Below are positions 53,098 to 59,646 of a stretch of DNA of 64,000 nt, in pieces. The translations under genes and the position numbers were made by a program. Location: positions 523,825 through 587,824 of the forward strand of contig JBFWNL010000001.1 in NCBI GenBank assembly GCA_050251055.1, written 5' to 3'. The notes under the pieces were generated by a model. It saw only the letters and a program-made list of their open reading frames with translations, ran no database searches and had not been told where the DNA came from. The stretch's first letter is position 1; each line of letters opens with the position of its first letter. This DNA comes from Bacteriovoracia bacterium (GTDB taxonomy: Bacteria > Bdellovibrionota > UBA1018 > JBFWNL01).

Positions 53098-53606
53098 AGC
53101 TTTGCGAGTTCCTCACCTTGCTTTTGCGGACGCAAGGTCGAGTCCTGCAAGAACTGCTAGCCACATGCGGGGAGGGGCGCCTAGCGCAACTGTTGCGGGA
53201 CAACGAAGTCACGGCGCGGATATCGGTGCAAGGACTTCAGCTCGTGCACGGCCCCATGTCTTACCAGGGACATGGCGAAGGCTTCGCGATGATCGAGCAG
53301 ACGGTGACCGACCTGGCGTTGCCGGAGGAAATCGAGTTTCACCTCTGGTCCTACCCGTTTTACCGGGCGTTTATCGAAAGCGAGCTGGGACTGGATTCCA
53401 CGATCCGCAATGACAAGGCGAACGAACTGTCGGCGCTCTTGGACGAGGCCATCGCCTCGGCCCATCATTGGGGTGAATGCCTGGTCCCGAAAGATGGGGA
53501 CGCGGCGCTTGCGCGAAAAGTCCAAGCCGTGGTCAGCCAAAACTACCTGCGCTTTCGGACGGATTTCCTGCGTAAAACCGGCGGTCGCGCGCTTAGCTCT
53601 CTTTAG
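53094..53606 (+). CDS. Hypothetical protein
   Basis: Start MKLCEF overlaps the previous stop (ATGA). Confidence 0.65.
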   Translation: MKLCEFLTLLLRTQGRVLQELLATCGEGRLAQLLRDNEVTARISVQGLQLVHGPMSYQGHGEGFAMIEQTVTDLALPEEIEFHLWSYPFYRAFIESELGLDSTIRNDKANELSALLDEAIASAHHWGECLVPKDGDAALARKVQAVVSQNYLRFRTDFLRKTGGRALSSL

Positions 53607-55155
53607 CCAGCTTATGTTTTTCCAGAACTTTCCGTAACCCCTCGCGGCTCAAGCCAAGCAGCTTCGCCGCATGACTCTTATTGCCCTGGGTTTTCGCAAG
53701 CGCGATGCGCACCGCCTTTTTTTCCGCTTCATCTTTCGCCGCCTTCAGGGTCGTCACCTCACCCATCGACTCCTCGCTCGCTTCCCCTTCACTACCCGAG
53801 GCACCGATGGAGACCATCGACGCCGGGGTTGTCGGTTCGAGCTGAAAGTCCTGGGGAGAAAGCACATCGCGATCCCCGCTCAGAATGATCGCGCTTTCCA
53901 GCTTGTTCTGCAGCTGCCGGATATTTCCCGGCCACGGATAGGCCATGAGCTTGGCCAAGGCATCGGGGCTCAGCTTCTTCAAGCGCCGCGCGCGGCCCGC
54001 GAGCATTTTATTCAGGAGTGACTGGGAAAGGTCGCCAATATCGCCCGTGCGCTCGCGCAGAGCCGGAAGTCGGAAGCGGACGACGTTAATCCGGTAGTAA
54101 AGATCCTCGCGAAAACGCTGAGCGCGGACCATGCTCTCCAACTCACGGTTGGTCGCGGCCACGATCCGAAAGTCCACGGGCTTGGGCTTTTCGTCGGAAC
54201 CGACCGGAGTGACCGTCTTGTCCTGCAAAACGCGCAGGAGCTTGGCCTGCATGGAAAGCGGGAGCTCGCCGATTTCATCCAGAAAGAGCGTCCCCCCGTG
54301 GGCCATCTCGATCTTGCCCTTACGCGCGAACGTTCCCGTCGCCGCGCCCTTCGTCACCCCGAAGAGCTCGGCTTCGAACAGGCTCTCAGGGATGGCGGCG
54401 CAGTTCAGCGCGACGAAAGGGCTATTGCGGCGGGCGCTGCGCGAGTGCACCACCTTCGCCACGACTTCCTTGCCGGTACCGCTCTCCCCTTCGATTAAGA
54501 TGGAAGAATCGCTCTGCGCGAAGGCGGGTAGCTGATTGTAGAGTTCCTGCAAGAGACCGTTGGAAGAGCGCAGAACGAAGCTCTCGGTTTCCTGACCCCA
54601 GGTGCGCCGCTCCTGCTGGAGCGTGTTACTCACCTCGGTGAGATTCTCGATCGTGCGCCGATGCTCGAGCGCCACCGCCGCAAAGAGCGCAAGCACTTGC
54701 AGGATCTGCAGATCGTCTTCCTCGAACCGTCCGCGCTTGGAGTTCAAAATTTGTATCGCGCCCAAGTTGCGACCGGAAGGCGCCCGCATCGGCACGCAGA
54801 GAATCGTCTCGGTTCGGTACTGGGTGACGGCATCCACCTTTGGAAAAAACCGCGGATCCGAATGAGCGTCGTTGATGATGATCGGCAACGCCGTCTTGAA
54901 GACGTGCCCCACAATGCCCTGGTCAGCGGCGATCCTGATCTCTTTTCCGCCCATGCCGGTGGCTACCAGGGATGTGAGCTGCATGTCCGCCAGGGGGGCT
55001 TCCTTCTCGGGGGCTAGAAACACCGACCCGCGATCCCCATGGGTGAGCTCAATAGCCGCATCTAAGATGCGGGAAACCAGCGCCGTCCGCTCCAGACGGT
55101 CGAAGAAGGCCGTACAGACCTGCAGAAGCATGGGGAGGATCTGAGACGGTTCCAT
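53593..55155 (-). CDS. Sigma54-dependent enhancer-binding protein (GAF-AAA+-Fis HTH)
   Basis: N-terminal GAF (DPRF...YRT.TILCVP), GESGTGKE, LFLDEIGE, QAKLLRVLQ, WPGNIRQL, C-terminal HTH; GAFTGA loop reads GAATGT. Confidence 0.95.
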   Translation of the reverse strand: MEPSQILPMLLQVCTAFFDRLERTALVSRILDAAIELTHGDRGSVFLAPEKEAPLADMQLTSLVATGMGGKEIRIAADQGIVGHVFKTALPIIINDAHSDPRFFPKVDAVTQYRTETILCVPMRAPSGRNLGAIQILNSKRGRFEEDDLQILQVLALFAAVALEHRRTIENLTEVSNTLQQERRTWGQETESFVLRSSNGLLQELYNQLPAFAQSDSSILIEGESGTGKEVVAKVVHSRSARRNSPFVALNCAAIPESLFEAELFGVTKGAATGTFARKGKIEMAHGGTLFLDEIGELPLSMQAKLLRVLQDKTVTPVGSDEKPKPVDFRIVAATNRELESMVRAQRFREDLYYRINVVRFRLPALRERTGDIGDLSQSLLNKMLAGRARRLKKLSPDALAKLMAYPWPGNIRQLQNKLESAIILSGDRDVLSPQDFQLEPTTPASMVSIGASGSEGEASEESMGEVTTLKAAKDEAEKKAVRIALAKTQGNKSHAAKLLGLSREGLRKVLEKHKLAKES

Positions 55156-55162
55156 AGCGTTT

Positions 55163-55189
55163 TAATCGGTCTAAAGGGGCAAAACTATA
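55163..55189 (-). promoter_or_regulatory. Candidate sigma28 (FliA) promoter for the bEBP gene, leaderless
   Basis: Minus strand TATA-N15-ACCGATTA versus consensus TAAA-N15-GCCGATAA; ends 7 nt before the ATG; no SD. Confidence 0.5.
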
Positions 55190-55284
55190 ACTTTTGTTGG
55201 CAGTTTGAGTTAATTTCAGAAGGTAGTGCCAAAAAAAGTGCCATTCTGCACTAAAAGTTGGCAGTTTGACGCAACTGAAGTTGC
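55186..55284. promoter_or_regulatory. Upstream activator (enhancer) array
   Basis: Direct repeat GTTGGCAGTTTGA at 55196 and 55257; palindrome GCAAC-TGAA-GTTGC at 55271-55284; TGCCA half-sites. Confidence 0.65.
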
Positions 55285-55323
55285 CCTCTCGAGCTTTTCC
55301 CCTATCTTTTCAACCACCCAAAG

Positions 55324-55340
55324 TTGGCACCGCGCTTGCT
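55324..55340 (+). promoter_or_regulatory. Sigma54 (-24/-12) promoter
   Basis: TTGGCACCGCGCTTGCT, near-perfect TGGCAC-N5-TTGC(A/T). Confidence 0.85.
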
Positions 55341-55350
55341 CTATCTAGTC

Positions 55351-55475
55351 AGTGTGGGGAATGCAACGGGGACCTCAGAGTGGTGGGAGCTGAGGCCCTA
55401 AGCAACCCAAAAAGTTTGTCCTCCAAAACCCTAAAAACCCTCTCATGGGAGCCGGGCCATTTGGCCCGGCTCCAA
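55351..55475 (+). ncRNA. Candidate sigma54-dependent small RNA (or structured 5' leader of hldD)
   Basis: Starts at the predicted +1; 5' stem-loop 55355-55409, C-rich single strand (TCCTCC, AAAACCCT x2), terminal 11-12-bp hairpin 55448-55473; no credible ORF. Confidence 0.55.
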
Positions 55476-55542
55476 TAAGATTACGGGCCAAATTCGGGGT
55501 TAACCCTGTCCAAATCCAGGCAATCCAAGTAAAAATCAAAGC

Positions 55543-56544
55543 ATGAACGCTGCGGCAAAACCGATGGCGCCTCCGTCATCCATTCTAGTTACCGGCGCGG
55601 CCGGCTTTATCGGCACACGCCTCGTCGCACGCCTGCAATCCCTGCCCAAGCCCGCGCCCTTGATCAGCGTGGATCGTCGTGCGCACTTTGCCACGCGCAC
55701 CGAGCACGGGGGCACGGACTACGGACAAATCGTCGACCGTGACGAGCTCGAAGCCTGGCTCGCGAAAGAAAAGCCCGCGCTCAAGGCCGTGATTCACCTG
55801 GGCGCCTGCACCGACACCACGAATTTAGACGAAGCCTACCAGAAACGCATGAACCTGCAGTATTCGCAGATGCTTTGGAATCATTGCACGCGCGCGAAAA
55901 CCCCCTTCATTTACGCCAGCAGCGCCGCTACCTACGGCGAAGGAAATTTAGGCTATAGCGACGACGAAGGCCTGATCCCCATGTTGAAGCCCCTAAATCC
56001 CTACGGCGAATCCAAGCGCCTCTTTGATCTTTGGGCGATTGAACAAGAAAAAGCCGGCAAAACACCCCCCAGCTGGAGCGGGTTCAAGTTCTTCAACGTC
56101 TACGGGTTCGGTGAGCGCCACAAAGGCAAGATGGCCAGCGTCGTGCTCCATGCTTTCGATCAAATCCAGGCGAGCGGTCGCGTGAAGCTCTTCAAGAGCC
56201 ACCGCGAAGGCATCGCGCACGGCCAACAAAAGCGGGACTTCATTTACGTGGAAGACGTCGTCGACGTTTTACTCTACGCGATGAACCGCCCGATCCCACG
56301 CGGGATCTACAACTTAGGCAGCGGGCAAGCCCGCTCGTTTTTAGATCTCGTCCGCGCGACCTTCCGGGCAATGGGACGCTCGGAGCAAATCGAATTCATC
56401 GATACGCCATTGGAACTGCGCGAACGCTACCAGTACTTCACCGAAGCGAAGATGTTCAAGCTGGAGAGCCTGGGCTACGACAAGCCCTTTACCCCACTCG
56501 AAGAAGGCGTGGCTGCCACGGTGGCGCGCCTCGGCGCTCGCTAG
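55543..56544 (+). CDS. hldD: ADP-L-glycero-D-manno-heptose 6-epimerase
   Basis: TGAAGFIG, HLGACTDTT, YASSAATYG, YGESK, FNVYG..E.HKGKMASV. Confidence 0.93.
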   Translation: MNAAAKPMAPPSSILVTGAAGFIGTRLVARLQSLPKPAPLISVDRRAHFATRTEHGGTDYGQIVDRDELEAWLAKEKPALKAVIHLGACTDTTNLDEAYQKRMNLQYSQMLWNHCTRAKTPFIYASSAATYGEGNLGYSDDEGLIPMLKPLNPYGESKRLFDLWAIEQEKAGKTPPSWSGFKFFNVYGFGERHKGKMASVVLHAFDQIQASGRVKLFKSHREGIAHGQQKRDFIYVEDVVDVLLYAMNRPIPRGIYNLGSGQARSFLDLVRATFRAMGRSEQIEFIDTPLELRERYQYFTEAKMFKLESLGYDKPFTPLEEGVAATVARLGAR

Positions 56545-56778: not shown

Positions 56779-58239
56779 ATGCAAAAAAATTATATCAATA
56801 GTGAGTGGATTGATTCGCTCGGTAAAGAGAAGGTCGAAATCATCAACCCCGCCACCGGCAAGGTGATCGATCACTGCCCCCTCGGCACTAAAGAAGATGT
56901 CAACCGCGCGGTCGAAGCCGCCGCGAAAGCTTTCCCGATGTGGCGGCAGACCCCGCCCACGGATCGCGTACAGCCCCTCTTCCGTCTGAAGATGCTGCTC
57001 GAAGAGAATCAAGAAGCGCTCGCCCGCTGCCTCACGCAAGAGCACGGCAAGACGCTCGTTGAAGCCCGCGGCAGCATCCGTCGCGGCATTCAAATGGTCG
57101 AAACTGCGTGCGGCATCCCCACCCTGATGATGGGGCAGGTACTCGAAGACATCGCGCCCGGCATCGACAGCCAAGCCGTACGCCGTCCGATGGGCGTTTT
57201 CACTGCGATCACGCCTTCGAACTTTCCCGCCATGGTTCCGTTCTGGTTCTGGCCCTTCGCGGTCGCCTCGGGCAACACATTCGTGCTGAAGCCCAGCGAG
57301 CGCGTACCCATGACCCAGACGATGATCATGGACCTGATCACGAAGGCGAAGTTTCCACCGGGCGTGATCAACGTCGTGCAAGGCGGACGCGAAGTCGTCG
57401 ACGCGCTCTGCACCCACCCAAAAATCCAAGGCGTATCGTTCGTGGGCTCCACGCCGGTCGCCAAGCACGTCTACGTCACCGCTTCGGCCGCGGGTAAGCG
57501 CGTGCAATCGCTCGGCGGCGCGAAAAACTTCATGGTCGTCATGCCGGATGCCGTCATGGACAAAGCCGTTTCGACCGCGCTCGAATCCATTATCGGTTGC
57601 GCGGGCCAACGTTGCCTCGCCGGTTCCGTGATCCTGGCCGTGGGTGACTGCTACGACAAGGTCGCCGACCAGATCGTGCGCTTCGCGCGCGACGTGAACG
57701 TGGGCGACGGGCTCGACCCCCGCACGCAGATGGGTCCAGTGATCTCGGCCGCCTCGAAAGAGCGCGTGAAAGGATTGATCGCGGGCGCCGTGAAAGAAGG
57801 CGGCAAGCTCTTGCTCGACGGACGTGAAAACGTCGATCAAATGCCGGGCTACTTCCTGCGCCCCTCCGTCATTGGCGAAGTAAAACCCGAAATGACGATC
57901 GCCAAGGAAGAAGTTTTCGGACCCGTGGTTTGCCTGGCCCGAGTGAAGACACTCGACGAAGCGATCACCTGGCTCAATAGCTCGAACTACGCGAACACGA
58001 CCACGCTCTTTACGACGAACGGAGCGGCCGCCCGCAAGTTCACCTACGAGGTGGAGCCGAGCATGATCGGAATCAACATTGGCGTTCCCGCGCCCATGTC
58101 GTTTTTCTCATTCGGCGGCGCCAAGGACTCGTTCTTCGGCGACGTGAAGGCCCACGGGCGCGCGTCGATGGATTTTTACACCGACACCAAAACCACGATC
58201 TTCCGCTGGCTGAGCGATTCCAGCATTTGGAGCAAGTAA
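56779..58239 (+). CDS. mmsA: CoA-acylating (methyl)malonate-semialdehyde dehydrogenase
   Basis: NFPAMVP, KPSE, GGAKN, AGQRCLA, EEVFGPV, GINIGVPAP. Confidence 0.93.
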   Translation: MQKNYINSEWIDSLGKEKVEIINPATGKVIDHCPLGTKEDVNRAVEAAAKAFPMWRQTPPTDRVQPLFRLKMLLEENQEALARCLTQEHGKTLVEARGSIRRGIQMVETACGIPTLMMGQVLEDIAPGIDSQAVRRPMGVFTAITPSNFPAMVPFWFWPFAVASGNTFVLKPSERVPMTQTMIMDLITKAKFPPGVINVVQGGREVVDALCTHPKIQGVSFVGSTPVAKHVYVTASAAGKRVQSLGGAKNFMVVMPDAVMDKAVSTALESIIGCAGQRCLAGSVILAVGDCYDKVADQIVRFARDVNVGDGLDPRTQMGPVISAASKERVKGLIAGAVKEGGKLLLDGRENVDQMPGYFLRPSVIGEVKPEMTIAKEEVFGPVVCLARVKTLDEAITWLNSSNYANTTTLFTTNGAAARKFTYEVEPSMIGINIGVPAPMSFFSFGGAKDSFFGDVKAHGRASMDFYTDTKTTIFRWLSDSSIWSK

Positions 58240-59646
58240 ATGAAAACCCTACTCGTCAAAAACGGCCTGGTCGTTACCGCCACCGATCAATACGAAGCCG
58301 ACATTTACGTCGTGGGCGAAAAGATCCAGACGATCGGTAAGGGGCTGGAAGCCCAGTTAATAAAAGCCGATCAAGTGCCAGATCAAGTTATTGACGCCAA
58401 GGGCCGCTACGTGTTCCCGGGCGGGATCGACGCCCACACGCACATGGATCTGCCCTTCATGGGGACATCTTCGAGCGACGACTTCGAGAGCGGTACGATG
58501 GCGGGCCTGCACGGCGGTACCACGACCATCATCGACTTCGCGATTCAGACCCAAGGCGATAGCTTGGCCGCCGCTTTGAACACCTGGCACGAAAAGGCCG
58601 ACGGCAAGGCCGTGGGTGACTACGCCTTCCACCTCGCGATTACGGATCTGAACGAAAAGACGAAGGCCGAGATTAAGACTTGCGTGGAAAAAGGCGTGAC
58701 GTCCTTTAAGACCTTCATGGCCTATAAAGGCGCCTTGATGATCGACGACCGCCAGATGGTCGCGCTCATGGCCGAAGTTTCCAAGCAAGGCGGCATGGTC
58801 ACAACCCACGCCGAAAACGGCGATATGATCGATAACCTTATCGCCCAGAATCGCCTGAACGGGAATCTGACCCCGAAATACCACGCGCTCTCGCGCCCCG
58901 AAATCGCCGAAGCCGAAGCAACCGGCCGCATTTCCGATATCGCGTTCCAAGGCGGGCATCCGCTCTACATCGTGCACATGACCTGTGAAGGCGCGCTGAA
59001 CCGCATCCGCGAGAACACGAAACGGGGCCAGAAGGTCTTCGTCGAGACCTGCGTGCAATACCTGCTCCTGGATGACACTTTGTATTCGCGCGAGAACTTC
59101 GAAGGCTCCAAGTGGGTAATGAGCCCACCGCTCCGCAAGCCCAAAGACCAAGCCGCGCTCTGGGCCGCGCTCAACCAAGGCCTCGTGCAGGTCGTGGCCA
59201 CCGATCATTGCCCGTTCTGCATGGACCAGAAGCGCATGGGTGAAAAAGACTTCTCGAAGATCCCGAACGGCGCGCCCGGCGTCGAAAACCGTCTGGAGCT
59301 CATGTTCTCGGAAGGCGTGGGCAAGGGCCGCATTTCGCTCAATAAGTTCGTCGACGTGAATTGCACGGCGCCGGCCAAGATCTTCGGTCTCTTCCCGCGC
59401 AAGGGAACGATCGCCGTGGGTTCGGACGCGGATCTTGTGATCTTCGACCCGAACGAGACTCATACGTTATCGGTAAAGAACCAGCACATGAAGTGTGACT
59501 ACTCGGCTTATGAGGGCTGGAACGTGCGCGGAAAGGTGAAGACCACCATCCTGCGCGGTACCGTGGCCGTGGACAACGGTAAAGCACATGTCGGCAAGGG
59601 TTTCGGGAAATACCTCCCACGTGCCAAGCTGAGCGCCAACATTTAG
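58240..59646 (+). CDS. hydA: Dihydropyrimidinase
   Basis: PGGIDAHTH, GGTTTIIDF, SFKTFMAY, HAENG, SPPLR, TDHCPF. Confidence 0.95.
   Translation: MKTLLVKNGLVVTATDQYEADIYVVGEKIQTIGKGLEAQLIKADQVPDQVIDAKGRYVFPGGIDAHTHMDLPFMGTSSSDDFESGTMAGLHGGTTTIIDFAIQTQGDSLAAALNTWHEKADGKAVGDYAFHLAITDLNEKTKAEIKTCVEKGVTSFKTFMAYKGALMIDDRQMVALMAEVSKQGGMVTTHAENGDMIDNLIAQNRLNGNLTPKYHALSRPEIAEAEATGRISDIAFQGGHPLYIVHMTCEGALNRIRENTKRGQKVFVETCVQYLLLDDTLYSRENFEGSKWVMSPPLRKPKDQAALWAALNQGLVQVVATDHCPFCMDQKRMGEKDFSKIPNGAPGVENRLELMFSEGVGKGRISLNKFVDVNCTAPAKIFGLFPRKGTIAVGSDADLVIFDPNETHTLSVKNQHMKCDYSAYEGWNVRGKVKTTILRGTVAVDNGKAHVGKGFGKYLPRAKLSANI

Follow-up and report, generated by a model that had tools for sequence, protein, structure and literature searches.

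A sigma-54 promoter divergent from a variant enhancer-binding protein gene, with a candidate structured leader of hldD, in a Bacteriovoracia bacterium

Activators with an adjacent sigma-54-dependent RNA gene are already known in several groups of bacteria. LuxO of the Vibrionaceae is a phosphorylated response regulator with the canonical GAFTGA motif, and the Qrr RNAs are proven Hfq-dependent small RNAs (sRNAs) that end in a U-tract terminator. CrcZ, beside CbrB, and Pxr are likewise sigma-54 sRNAs encoded next to activator genes. In the Qrr1/LuxO pair, the sigma-54 activator gene and the small RNA gene lie in opposite orientation, with two upstream sites at about -175 to -60 (PMC10162802). 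Four enhancer-binding proteins (EBPs) of D. vulgaris, DVU0653, DVU0679, DVU1419 and DVU2359, are described as one- or two-component regulators with a non-coding RNA (ncRNA) as a listed target, and DVU2359 is a single-component EBP divergent from its sigma-54 promoter (PMC4641369). Sigma-54 dependence is also reported for GlmY, which is paired with GlrR (PMC3162934). Here we describe a stretch of 64,000 nucleotides from a Bacteriovoracia bacterium (assembly GCA_050251055.1, contig JBFWNL010000001.1, positions 523,825 to 587,824; hereafter the window), in which the gap between the gene of a GAF-domain EBP, hereafter the activator, and hldD holds a sigma-54 promoter followed by a predicted structured and non-coding first segment. 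At best, this locus adds one more case to the list above.

The arrangement resembles Qrr1/LuxO in its divergent promoter and upstream sites, but the window activator has a GAF sensor and a GAATGT loop, Hfq was not found in the 93.5%-complete genome, there is no match to Qrr or any other Rfam family, and the RNA itself is a prediction. With the D. vulgaris EBPs it shares the ncRNA-like output, and with DVU2359 the single-component, divergent layout; those proteins belong to different families, as judged by their descriptions, and in the window hldD follows in the same direction no more than 70 nt past the hairpin that ends the segment. A sigma-54 promoter, a dedicated activator and a putative small RNA nearby are also what the locus has in common with GlmY/GlrR, CrcZ/CbrB and Pxr, although no Rfam match links it to them. 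The reading that we favour, at a probability of about 0.45, is that the segment is a sigma-54-dependent structured leader or attenuator of hldD, possibly shedding a short 5' RNA, rather than a free sRNA. The initial annotation had named such a leader as the alternative to its sRNA, and we find it at least as likely, because the hairpin has no U-tract, a 10-nt alternative partner for one hairpin arm lies downstream, the synteny with hldD recurs in a relative (genome G006), and an open frame leads up to an hldD gene that lacks a Shine-Dalgarno sequence.

The gap is 387 bp long (55156-55542) and belongs to contig C1, of which the window is a part, in a genome of 3.77 Mb. On the reverse strand it is bordered by the activator gene (53593-55155; 520 aa), whose product carries the Pfam domains GAF, Sigma54_activat (PF00158, E 7.8e-65), AAA_lid_14 and HTH_8 (E 8e-10). 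When this protein was compared with the NCBIfam equivalogs, none of the 25 top models (NifA, NorR, NtrC, LuxO, GlrR and others) was reached at its own cut-off, the best score being that of NifA, 334.1 bits against a cut-off of 528.85. On the forward strand the gap is followed by hldD (55543-56544), which codes for ADP-glyceromanno-heptose 6-epimerase (TIGR02197, 336.2 bits against a cut-off of 274.6) and has no Shine-Dalgarno sequence upstream of its ATG.

The initial annotation had called a near-perfect sigma-54 promoter in this gap, and it proved to be of full consensus. It reads TTGGCAC-N5-TTGCT at 55324-55340 on the forward strand, about 170 bp from the divergent activator gene, and its core elements TGGCAC (55325-55330) and TTGC (55336-55339) form GG-N10-GC (GG at 55326-55327, GC at 55338-55339), with a predicted start (+1) at about 55351. 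The strict pattern TGGCAC-N5-TTGC[AT] has 23 matches in the genome, 55325-55339 among them, where our own rough estimate of chance gives 3-4 sites, and rpoN is encoded in the same genome (PF04552, 219.5 bits, C10:43613-44092). Many sigma-54 promoters across the genome run on as TTGCTCTA or TTGCTTTAT past the -12 element, so that the ATCTAG common to the window and G006 is in part a general promoter feature and not one of the RNA.

An array of repeated and palindromic boxes had been noted upstream of the promoter, and it turned out to be unique in the genome. Two upstream activator boxes on the forward strand consist of the same 13-mer, GTTGGCAGTTTGA, at 55196-55208 (box 1, centred at about -149) and 55257-55269 (box 2, centred at about -88); an exact-repeat search found these two copies genome-wide, both inside the gap. 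Furthermore, outside the gap no stretch of 160 nt in the genome holds four or more TTGGCA/TGCCAA hexamers; the count in the gap includes the promoter's own TTGGCA. Two inverted half-sites, TGCCAA and TGCCA, flank an A-run at 55227-55243 (forward strand); the half-site recurs at orthologue loci, and the near-identical TGCCAAAAAAAGTGC stands in the gap beside the activator orthologue of genome G361. Two AAC-N4-GTT boxes were also seen by eye, one at 55190-55199 and the other within the inverted repeat GCAAC-TGAA-GTTGC at 55271-55284 (forward strand). Boxes about 80-150 bp before the promoter, together with a cognate activator, are what a sigma-54 promoter calls for, and we predict that the activator binds there.

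The pairing of activator and promoter reaches well beyond this genome. Full-length orthologues of the activator occur in two of the 115 other genomes of the order, G085 (60% identity) and G006 (56%), and widening the search to the 127 genomes of the class brought no more; across the phylum, sampled evenly at 401 genomes, there are 12 with an orthologue, the window's own counted. The Bdellovibrio proteins are reciprocal-best to the window activator (E 7e-142 and 8e-145; the next paralogue gives 1e-67 and 2e-72), and named public records of orthologues include 'Bdellovibrionales bacterium GWB1_55_8' and 'uncultured Oligoflexia bacterium'. A GG-N10-GC promoter divergent from the activator gene, with TGCCAA(C) boxes, is kept in 9 of the 12 orthologue genomes at similar offsets (indices 168-202 of the extracted stretches, counted from the matched N-terminus). 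In all seven Bdellovibrio loci the TGCCAA(C) boxes stand at about -99 and -82, and the spacing between promoter and activator gene matches that of the window. A scan of metagenomes with the GAF alignment gave at least five further loci, two at 54% identity with the open reading frame (ORF) layout of the G085 lineage and three at 27%, which are not orthologues. On this comparative evidence, the activator and the sigma-54 promoter are an orthologous module and a dedicated pair in the Bdellovibrionota.

What the promoter drives has changed from lineage to lineage. In the seven Bdellovibrio loci a Shine-Dalgarno sequence and an ORF of 59-60 aa follow 35-45 nt past the promoter (L096-L102, e.g. L097:1120-1296 on the reverse strand). 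In B. bacteriovorus HD100 the activator CAE79744.1 is reciprocal-best to that of the window, with about 45% identity over the full length, the same GAATGT loop and a divergent GG-N10-GC promoter, but its promoter GGCC...[CA]GC is off consensus, the adjoining gene codes for the 59-60 aa hypothetical protein CAE79743.1, and hldD is not adjacent. This small protein belongs to no Pfam family and had no detectable homologue in any of five genomes (G000, which is the window genome, G006, G085, G361 and G315). G006, an Oligoflexia metagenome-assembled genome (MAG), has a 21-codon ORF followed by hldD, and the window has hldD with no such ORF. No GG-N10-GC site was found in the gap of G361, where a C-rich tract beside the activator gene leads into a U-run hairpin. 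Nor did a search of G085 and G361 that allowed up to two mismatches turn up the promoter at another place. In G315 (L094) a transposase-like ORF with a helix-turn-helix motif lies, by eye, upstream of the activator orthologue at the expected place of the promoter, and the module there looks disrupted by an insertion.

The initial annotation did not mention one unexpected feature of the activator. Its L1 loop reads GAATGT (ELFGVTKGAATGT; window 54340-54400, about residues 262-281 of the protein; orthologue loci L005, L006 and L094-L102) where activators have GAFTGA, and the aromatic third residue is therefore missing. The Walker A and Walker B motifs are intact in the translation (GESGTGKE and LFLDE). 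When the AAA+ domain was used as a query against the genome, 20 matches were obtained: the activator itself, 18 proteins with G[AS]FTGA and one that could not be aligned at the motif. The GAATGT sequence is invariant in all 12 orthologue genomes. Among the best 150 matches from 1.84 billion representative sequences, seven have GAATGT, one GAATGV and 20 GVATGV, a few are close variants, and the rest are mostly canonical. Ten representatives were looked up; those with names are a protein of a Tectomicrobia MAG and metagenome proteins labelled 'Nif-specific regulatory protein'. By the GAFTGA criterion, the activator is accordingly a variant and not a canonical EBP.

A review describes the phenylalanine of GAFTGA as consistently essential, with tyrosine as the sole natural alternative (PMC7057263). 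Francke et al. take a defective motif to indicate that a protein depends on sigma-70 (PMC3162934), and EBP homologues with defective motifs are elsewhere described as sigma-70 dependent (PMC6158489). Kazakov et al., in contrast, report a D. vulgaris protein with GVATGV, DVUA0100, that is predicted by regulon inference to serve sigma-54 promoters (PMC4641369). DVUA0100 thus resembles the window activator in a G-x-A-T-G-x loop without phenylalanine and in its predicted sigma-54 service; it differs in having an uncharacterised N-terminal region and in its listed targets, type III secretion genes (PMC4641369). The steady pairing of the GAATGT clade with GG-N10-GC promoters points to sigma-54 service despite the missing phenylalanine. 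A natural clade of activators that lacks the aromatic residue and is still paired with such promoters may offer a direct test of the need for phenylalanine in sigma-54 remodelling.

The predicted transcript begins with a non-coding segment of about 124 nt (55351-55474, forward strand). Its predicted fold contains the three elements claimed for it: an extended 5' stem-loop at 55355-55409, present in both the minimum free energy (MFE) and centroid structures; a C-rich, G-poor unpaired tract at 55419-55445, with UCCUCC at 55419-55424 and AAAACCCU and AAAAACCCU at 55425-55441; and a stable terminal hairpin at 55447-55473, GC-rich, with 11 bp and a 4-nt loop, found by folding and by inverted-repeat search (all on the forward strand). 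The MFE of a 130-nt fold was -52.5 kcal/mol, where shuffled sequences gave -42.8 +/- 3.8 (z = -2.56; 4 of 200 shuffles as stable), a modest excess of stability. The absence of any credible ORF, as first described, is nearly right: no ORF preceded by a Shine-Dalgarno sequence is present in the transcribed part, but a 10-codon ORF and a 33-codon ORF exist, both without one. The latter (55445-55546, forward strand; putatively coding) ends in a TGA that overlaps the ATG of hldD (ATGA). A look-up of sequencing data sets that hold this DNA listed no RNA run and two DNA sets, both from a single landfill-metagenome study that may be the source of the window DNA. The contigs of these two sets, not an independent check, are identical to 55100-55700 with no indel, and the frame relation between this ORF and hldD is therefore not an obvious assembly slip.

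The hairpin is followed by the tail AAUAAGAU, where the terminator scan made no call, which agrees with the earlier remark that it lacks a U-tract. Terminators with a U-tract are common in this genome: of 80 strong hairpins behind genes, 47 are followed by four or more T within 8 nt. Farther downstream, the segment 55484-55493 (forward strand) is fully complementary, over 10 nt, to the 3' arm of the hairpin (55459-55468), so that an alternative pairing is possible in principle; this partner was not seen in G006. A C-rich, G-poor tract before a hairpin would also fit a loading site for Rho.

From these elements we propose the following course of events. The GAF-domain activator would bind the TTGGCA/TGCCAA boxes at about -150 to -85 and, once its sensor domain is triggered, would open the promoter at 55325-55339, with transcription starting near 55351. 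The first 125 nt or so would then serve as a long, structured, cis-acting leader or attenuator, in which the GC hairpin without a U-tract and the C-rich, G-poor tract before it would cause the polymerase to pause or to stop in part of the cases. If the 3' arm of the hairpin paired with 55484-55493 instead, the polymerase would read through and yield a conditional, sigma-54-dependent hldD mRNA for the heptose step of the lipopolysaccharide (LPS) core. A short RNA from the 5' end may build up as a by-product.

The link to hldD is best seen in G006, which is from another family of the order, has an HldD 54% identical to that of the window, and alone shares the gene order of the window among the 127 genomes of the class and in two scans of collections. 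Activator gene, promoter, hairpin, a conserved block and hldD follow one another in both, while the outer flanking genes differ. A pairwise global alignment of the two gaps scored 61, against 14.8 +/- 11 for shuffled sequences (maximum 41 in 200), and nearly all of this score comes from the two ends, the body of the RNA being barely conserved. The G006 promoter, TGGCAC-N5-CTGC, is followed by ATCTAGTC as in the window, and its boxes are CTGCCAAC and TTGGCG-N7-CGCCAA. After the promoter come about 60 nt, a GAGGAG sequence, the 21-codon hydrophobic ORF, AAAAAGTTT, a C-rich tract, a GC hairpin without a U-run, the block and hldD; the window keeps the promoter, one AAAAAGTTT, the C-rich tract, the hairpin and the block. 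Counted as shared elements, these are the promoter, one AAAAGTTT, the hairpin and the block adjacent to hldD. The two hairpins have AGCC(S)GG...CC(S)GGCU in common, and by eye one pair is seen to have flipped from G-C to C-G, a compensated change. The conservation that had been set as a check of promoter and structure thus extends to the promoter in 9 of 12 genomes and to the hairpin in G006, and stops short of the RNA body.

The block itself lies at 55497-55540 on the forward strand (GGGNTTAACCCTNNCCAAAT...) and was delimited by alignment and pattern search. Its exact pattern was found solely in the window genome and G006 among the genomes of the class; with up to two mismatches allowed, counts across the class were like those of a reversed control. 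It is open in one frame in both genomes, as part of the 33-codon ORF in the window and running into hldD in G006, and its differences fall 5/2/5 by codon position, which proves nothing about coding. The block opens with GGGTTAACCC (55497-55506), a perfect 10-nt palindrome; the spacing in G006 is off by one base and the palindrome is not kept there. As for the 21-codon ORF of G006 (L006:1179-1244, reverse strand, the same as L070), its product is wholly hydrophobic, GAGGAG is a strong Shine-Dalgarno sequence, and AAAAGTTTAGT stands at both of its ends.

Several observations weigh against hldD as the output of the promoter. The predicted start lies 192 nt from the next ORF of at least 60 aa, while at the other 22 of the 23 strict sites this distance is at most 107 nt (2-107) and the ORFs mostly have the Shine-Dalgarno sequence that is missing here; an outlier of this kind fits a cargo other than hldD. 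The Bdellovibrio promoter drives its own short unit, with a terminator hairpin after the 59-60 aa ORF in the loci read by eye, and from such comparisons a short cargo looks ancestral. In G085, the genome with the closest activator orthologue, the activator gene is separated by a gap of about 95 bp from an ATP-grasp gene, hldD is not adjacent and no sigma-54 promoter was seen. The gene hldD is present in 96 of 116 genomes of the order, and when the 400 nt upstream were examined at 29 further loci of the order, none held a sigma-54 site with a score of 19 or above, so that sigma-54 control of hldD is not general. Folding of the whole leader shows nothing out of the ordinary (z = -1.53 in the window and -1.78 in G006). 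Some 40% of the genome's strong 3' hairpins go without a T-run as well, so that termination at 55473 may occur; with a limit of at least five T in the next 8 nt, the counts are 34 of 212 hairpins after genes and 7 of 165 inside genes. Finally, the GAATGT loop speaks against any sigma-54-driven leader, because the activator is without the residue that reviews call essential.

At the 29 other loci hldD is mostly right behind another gene. In at least 10 of them (L104, L105, L106, L113, L115, L116, L118, L119, L122 and L123) it directly follows the gene of a membrane protein of about 230 aa, which we presume to be YhhQ-like and which ends in ...DTDF(N/S/T)PF...; in L104 the stop and start codons overlap as ATGA. 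The window genome keeps an intact gene for this membrane protein elsewhere (C5:7737-8432), and hldD has therefore moved. In favour of the leader reading, comparative work ties sigma-54 to genes for LPS and envelope precursors (PMC3162934), and among the D. vulgaris EBPs there is one with a listed target in lipid A biosynthesis (PMC4641369).

The strongest rival, although we think it unlikely, is a free, trans-acting sRNA of about 125 nt that ends at the hairpin 55447-55473 and whose C-rich strand (UCCUCC...ACCCUCUC) pairs with the Shine-Dalgarno regions of its targets. The outlying distance from +1 to the next gene and the short units driven by the orthologous promoters argue for it, as do the presence of its own sigma-54 promoter and a layout usual for sRNAs (z = -2.56), in which a 5' stem-loop and a strong 3' hairpin enclose an unpaired C-rich tract. 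In G006 a C-rich tract likewise stands just before the homologous hairpin with its compensated flip, in G361 one precedes a U-run hairpin beside the activator gene, and activator-adjacent RNA genes are known from Qrr1/LuxO (PMC10162802) and the four D. vulgaris ncRNAs (PMC4641369). However, without a U-tract the hairpin is not an intrinsic terminator as usually defined, and the sequence presumed to act as seed is not kept in G006, where the homologous position is taken by the 21-codon ORF with its strong Shine-Dalgarno sequence. Neither the search for Hfq nor those for relatives favour an sRNA. The scan with Rfam 15 that the initial annotation had proposed gave no match at the gathering threshold in the whole window, and an E-value scan of 54900-55800 gave six matches, all far below gathering (best E 0.16), the best of them microRNA and leader models that fit the hairpin alone; no DNA homologue of the gap was found in 40 relatives and no second copy in the genome.

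The proposed targets fared no better. A duplex scan of the C-rich tract against about 10,490 start regions, with energies computed roughly on the DNA letters, produced no target that stood out: the best reached -34.7 kcal/mol, and five shuffled seeds reached -26.6 to -32.4. A second role suggested at first, that of a sponge acting through GGA motifs, is weak; CsrA is encoded in the genome, but the 125 nt hold four GGA by eye, not the many expected of a sponge, where about two are expected by chance on our own estimate. Of the dedicated activator-plus-sRNA module originally described, then, the activator and promoter pair stands, with its unique boxes and its recurrence in 9 of 12 orthologues, and the free 125-nt sRNA is a less favoured candidate, with no Rfam match, no paralogue, no U-tract and a body barely conserved in G006.

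A bolder version, which we consider improbable, holds that a clade of EBPs without phenylalanine (GAATGT, with GVATGV relatives elsewhere) still drives sigma-54 promoters, each with one tiny divergent cargo, and that in the window's lineage the small protein has been swapped for a regulatory RNA with a C-rich anti-Shine-Dalgarno seed; in that case the phylum would have its first sigma-54-dependent sRNA. If true, this would be a swap of cargo from protein to RNA at a fixed promoter.

Less probable again is a decayed cargo, in which a small protein gene has been lost, the 125 nt are a remnant without function, and the promoter now feeds hldD or is vanishing. Cargo that is specific to each lineage (59-60 aa, 21 aa or none) and a Bdellovibrio protein with no homologue in five genomes would agree with such a loss. 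So would, more speculatively and by eye, a deletion between repeats, since the AAAAGTTTAGT that flanks the small ORF of G006 occurs once in the window. Against this stands the intact state of activator gene, promoter and both 13-mers, a sign that selection continues; moreover, shuffled sequences fold somewhat less stably, and G006 shares the hairpin.

The last alternative, that the activator works with sigma-70 or as a repressor or anti-activator, in the manner of TyrR, DhaR or VpsR, while the promoter is silent or is served by another of some 18 canonical activators, draws on the GAATGT loop that is alone among the genome's AAA+ matches (18 of the 19 others have G[AS]FTGA, one being not alignable) and on the reports cited above (PMC7057263, PMC3162934, PMC6158489), but we give it very little credence in view of the intact Walker motifs, of GAATGT in all 12 orthologue genomes, nine of them with a divergent GG-N10-GC promoter, which would be difficult to account for in a clade that had abandoned sigma-54, and of the related GVATGV protein DVUA0100 predicted at sigma-54 promoters (PMC4641369).

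With this locus, a phylum of predatory bacteria on which little work has been done is seen to have a paired sigma-54 activator and promoter, an orthologous unit whose cargo changes with the lineage. Should hldD be its real output, as in the leader reading that we prefer, a signal would feed into heptose synthesis for the LPS core; should the RNA instead stand alone, one more lineage would join the few known to have sigma-54 sRNAs beside their activator genes. The changing cargo and the loop without phenylalanine are to us the most noteworthy parts, and the GAATGT/GVATGV loop may matter more than the RNA question.

Two other origins of the block conserved before hldD were considered and found no support. 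To see whether it is what remains of the C-terminal coding part of the 230-aa membrane protein gene, a hidden Markov model built from 10 such proteins was run against the six frames of the window and G006 gaps, with a best E of 0.91; for a promoter of the ECF/sigma-E type, the pattern TAACC[CT]-N15-18-TCC[AG]A[GA] gave 10 matches in the genome, with no regulon-like pattern. For the activator gene itself, a consensus scan gave a sigma-70-like match, TTAACT-18-TATAGT, at 55184-55213 on the reverse strand; this is a consensus match only, and it overlaps upstream box 1. Past hldD, after a gap of 235 nt, the window continues (56779-59646) with genes for a CoA-acylating methylmalonate-semialdehyde dehydrogenase (TIGR01722) and a dihydropyrimidinase (TIGR02033), which look like a pair for pyrimidine or beta-alanine catabolism.

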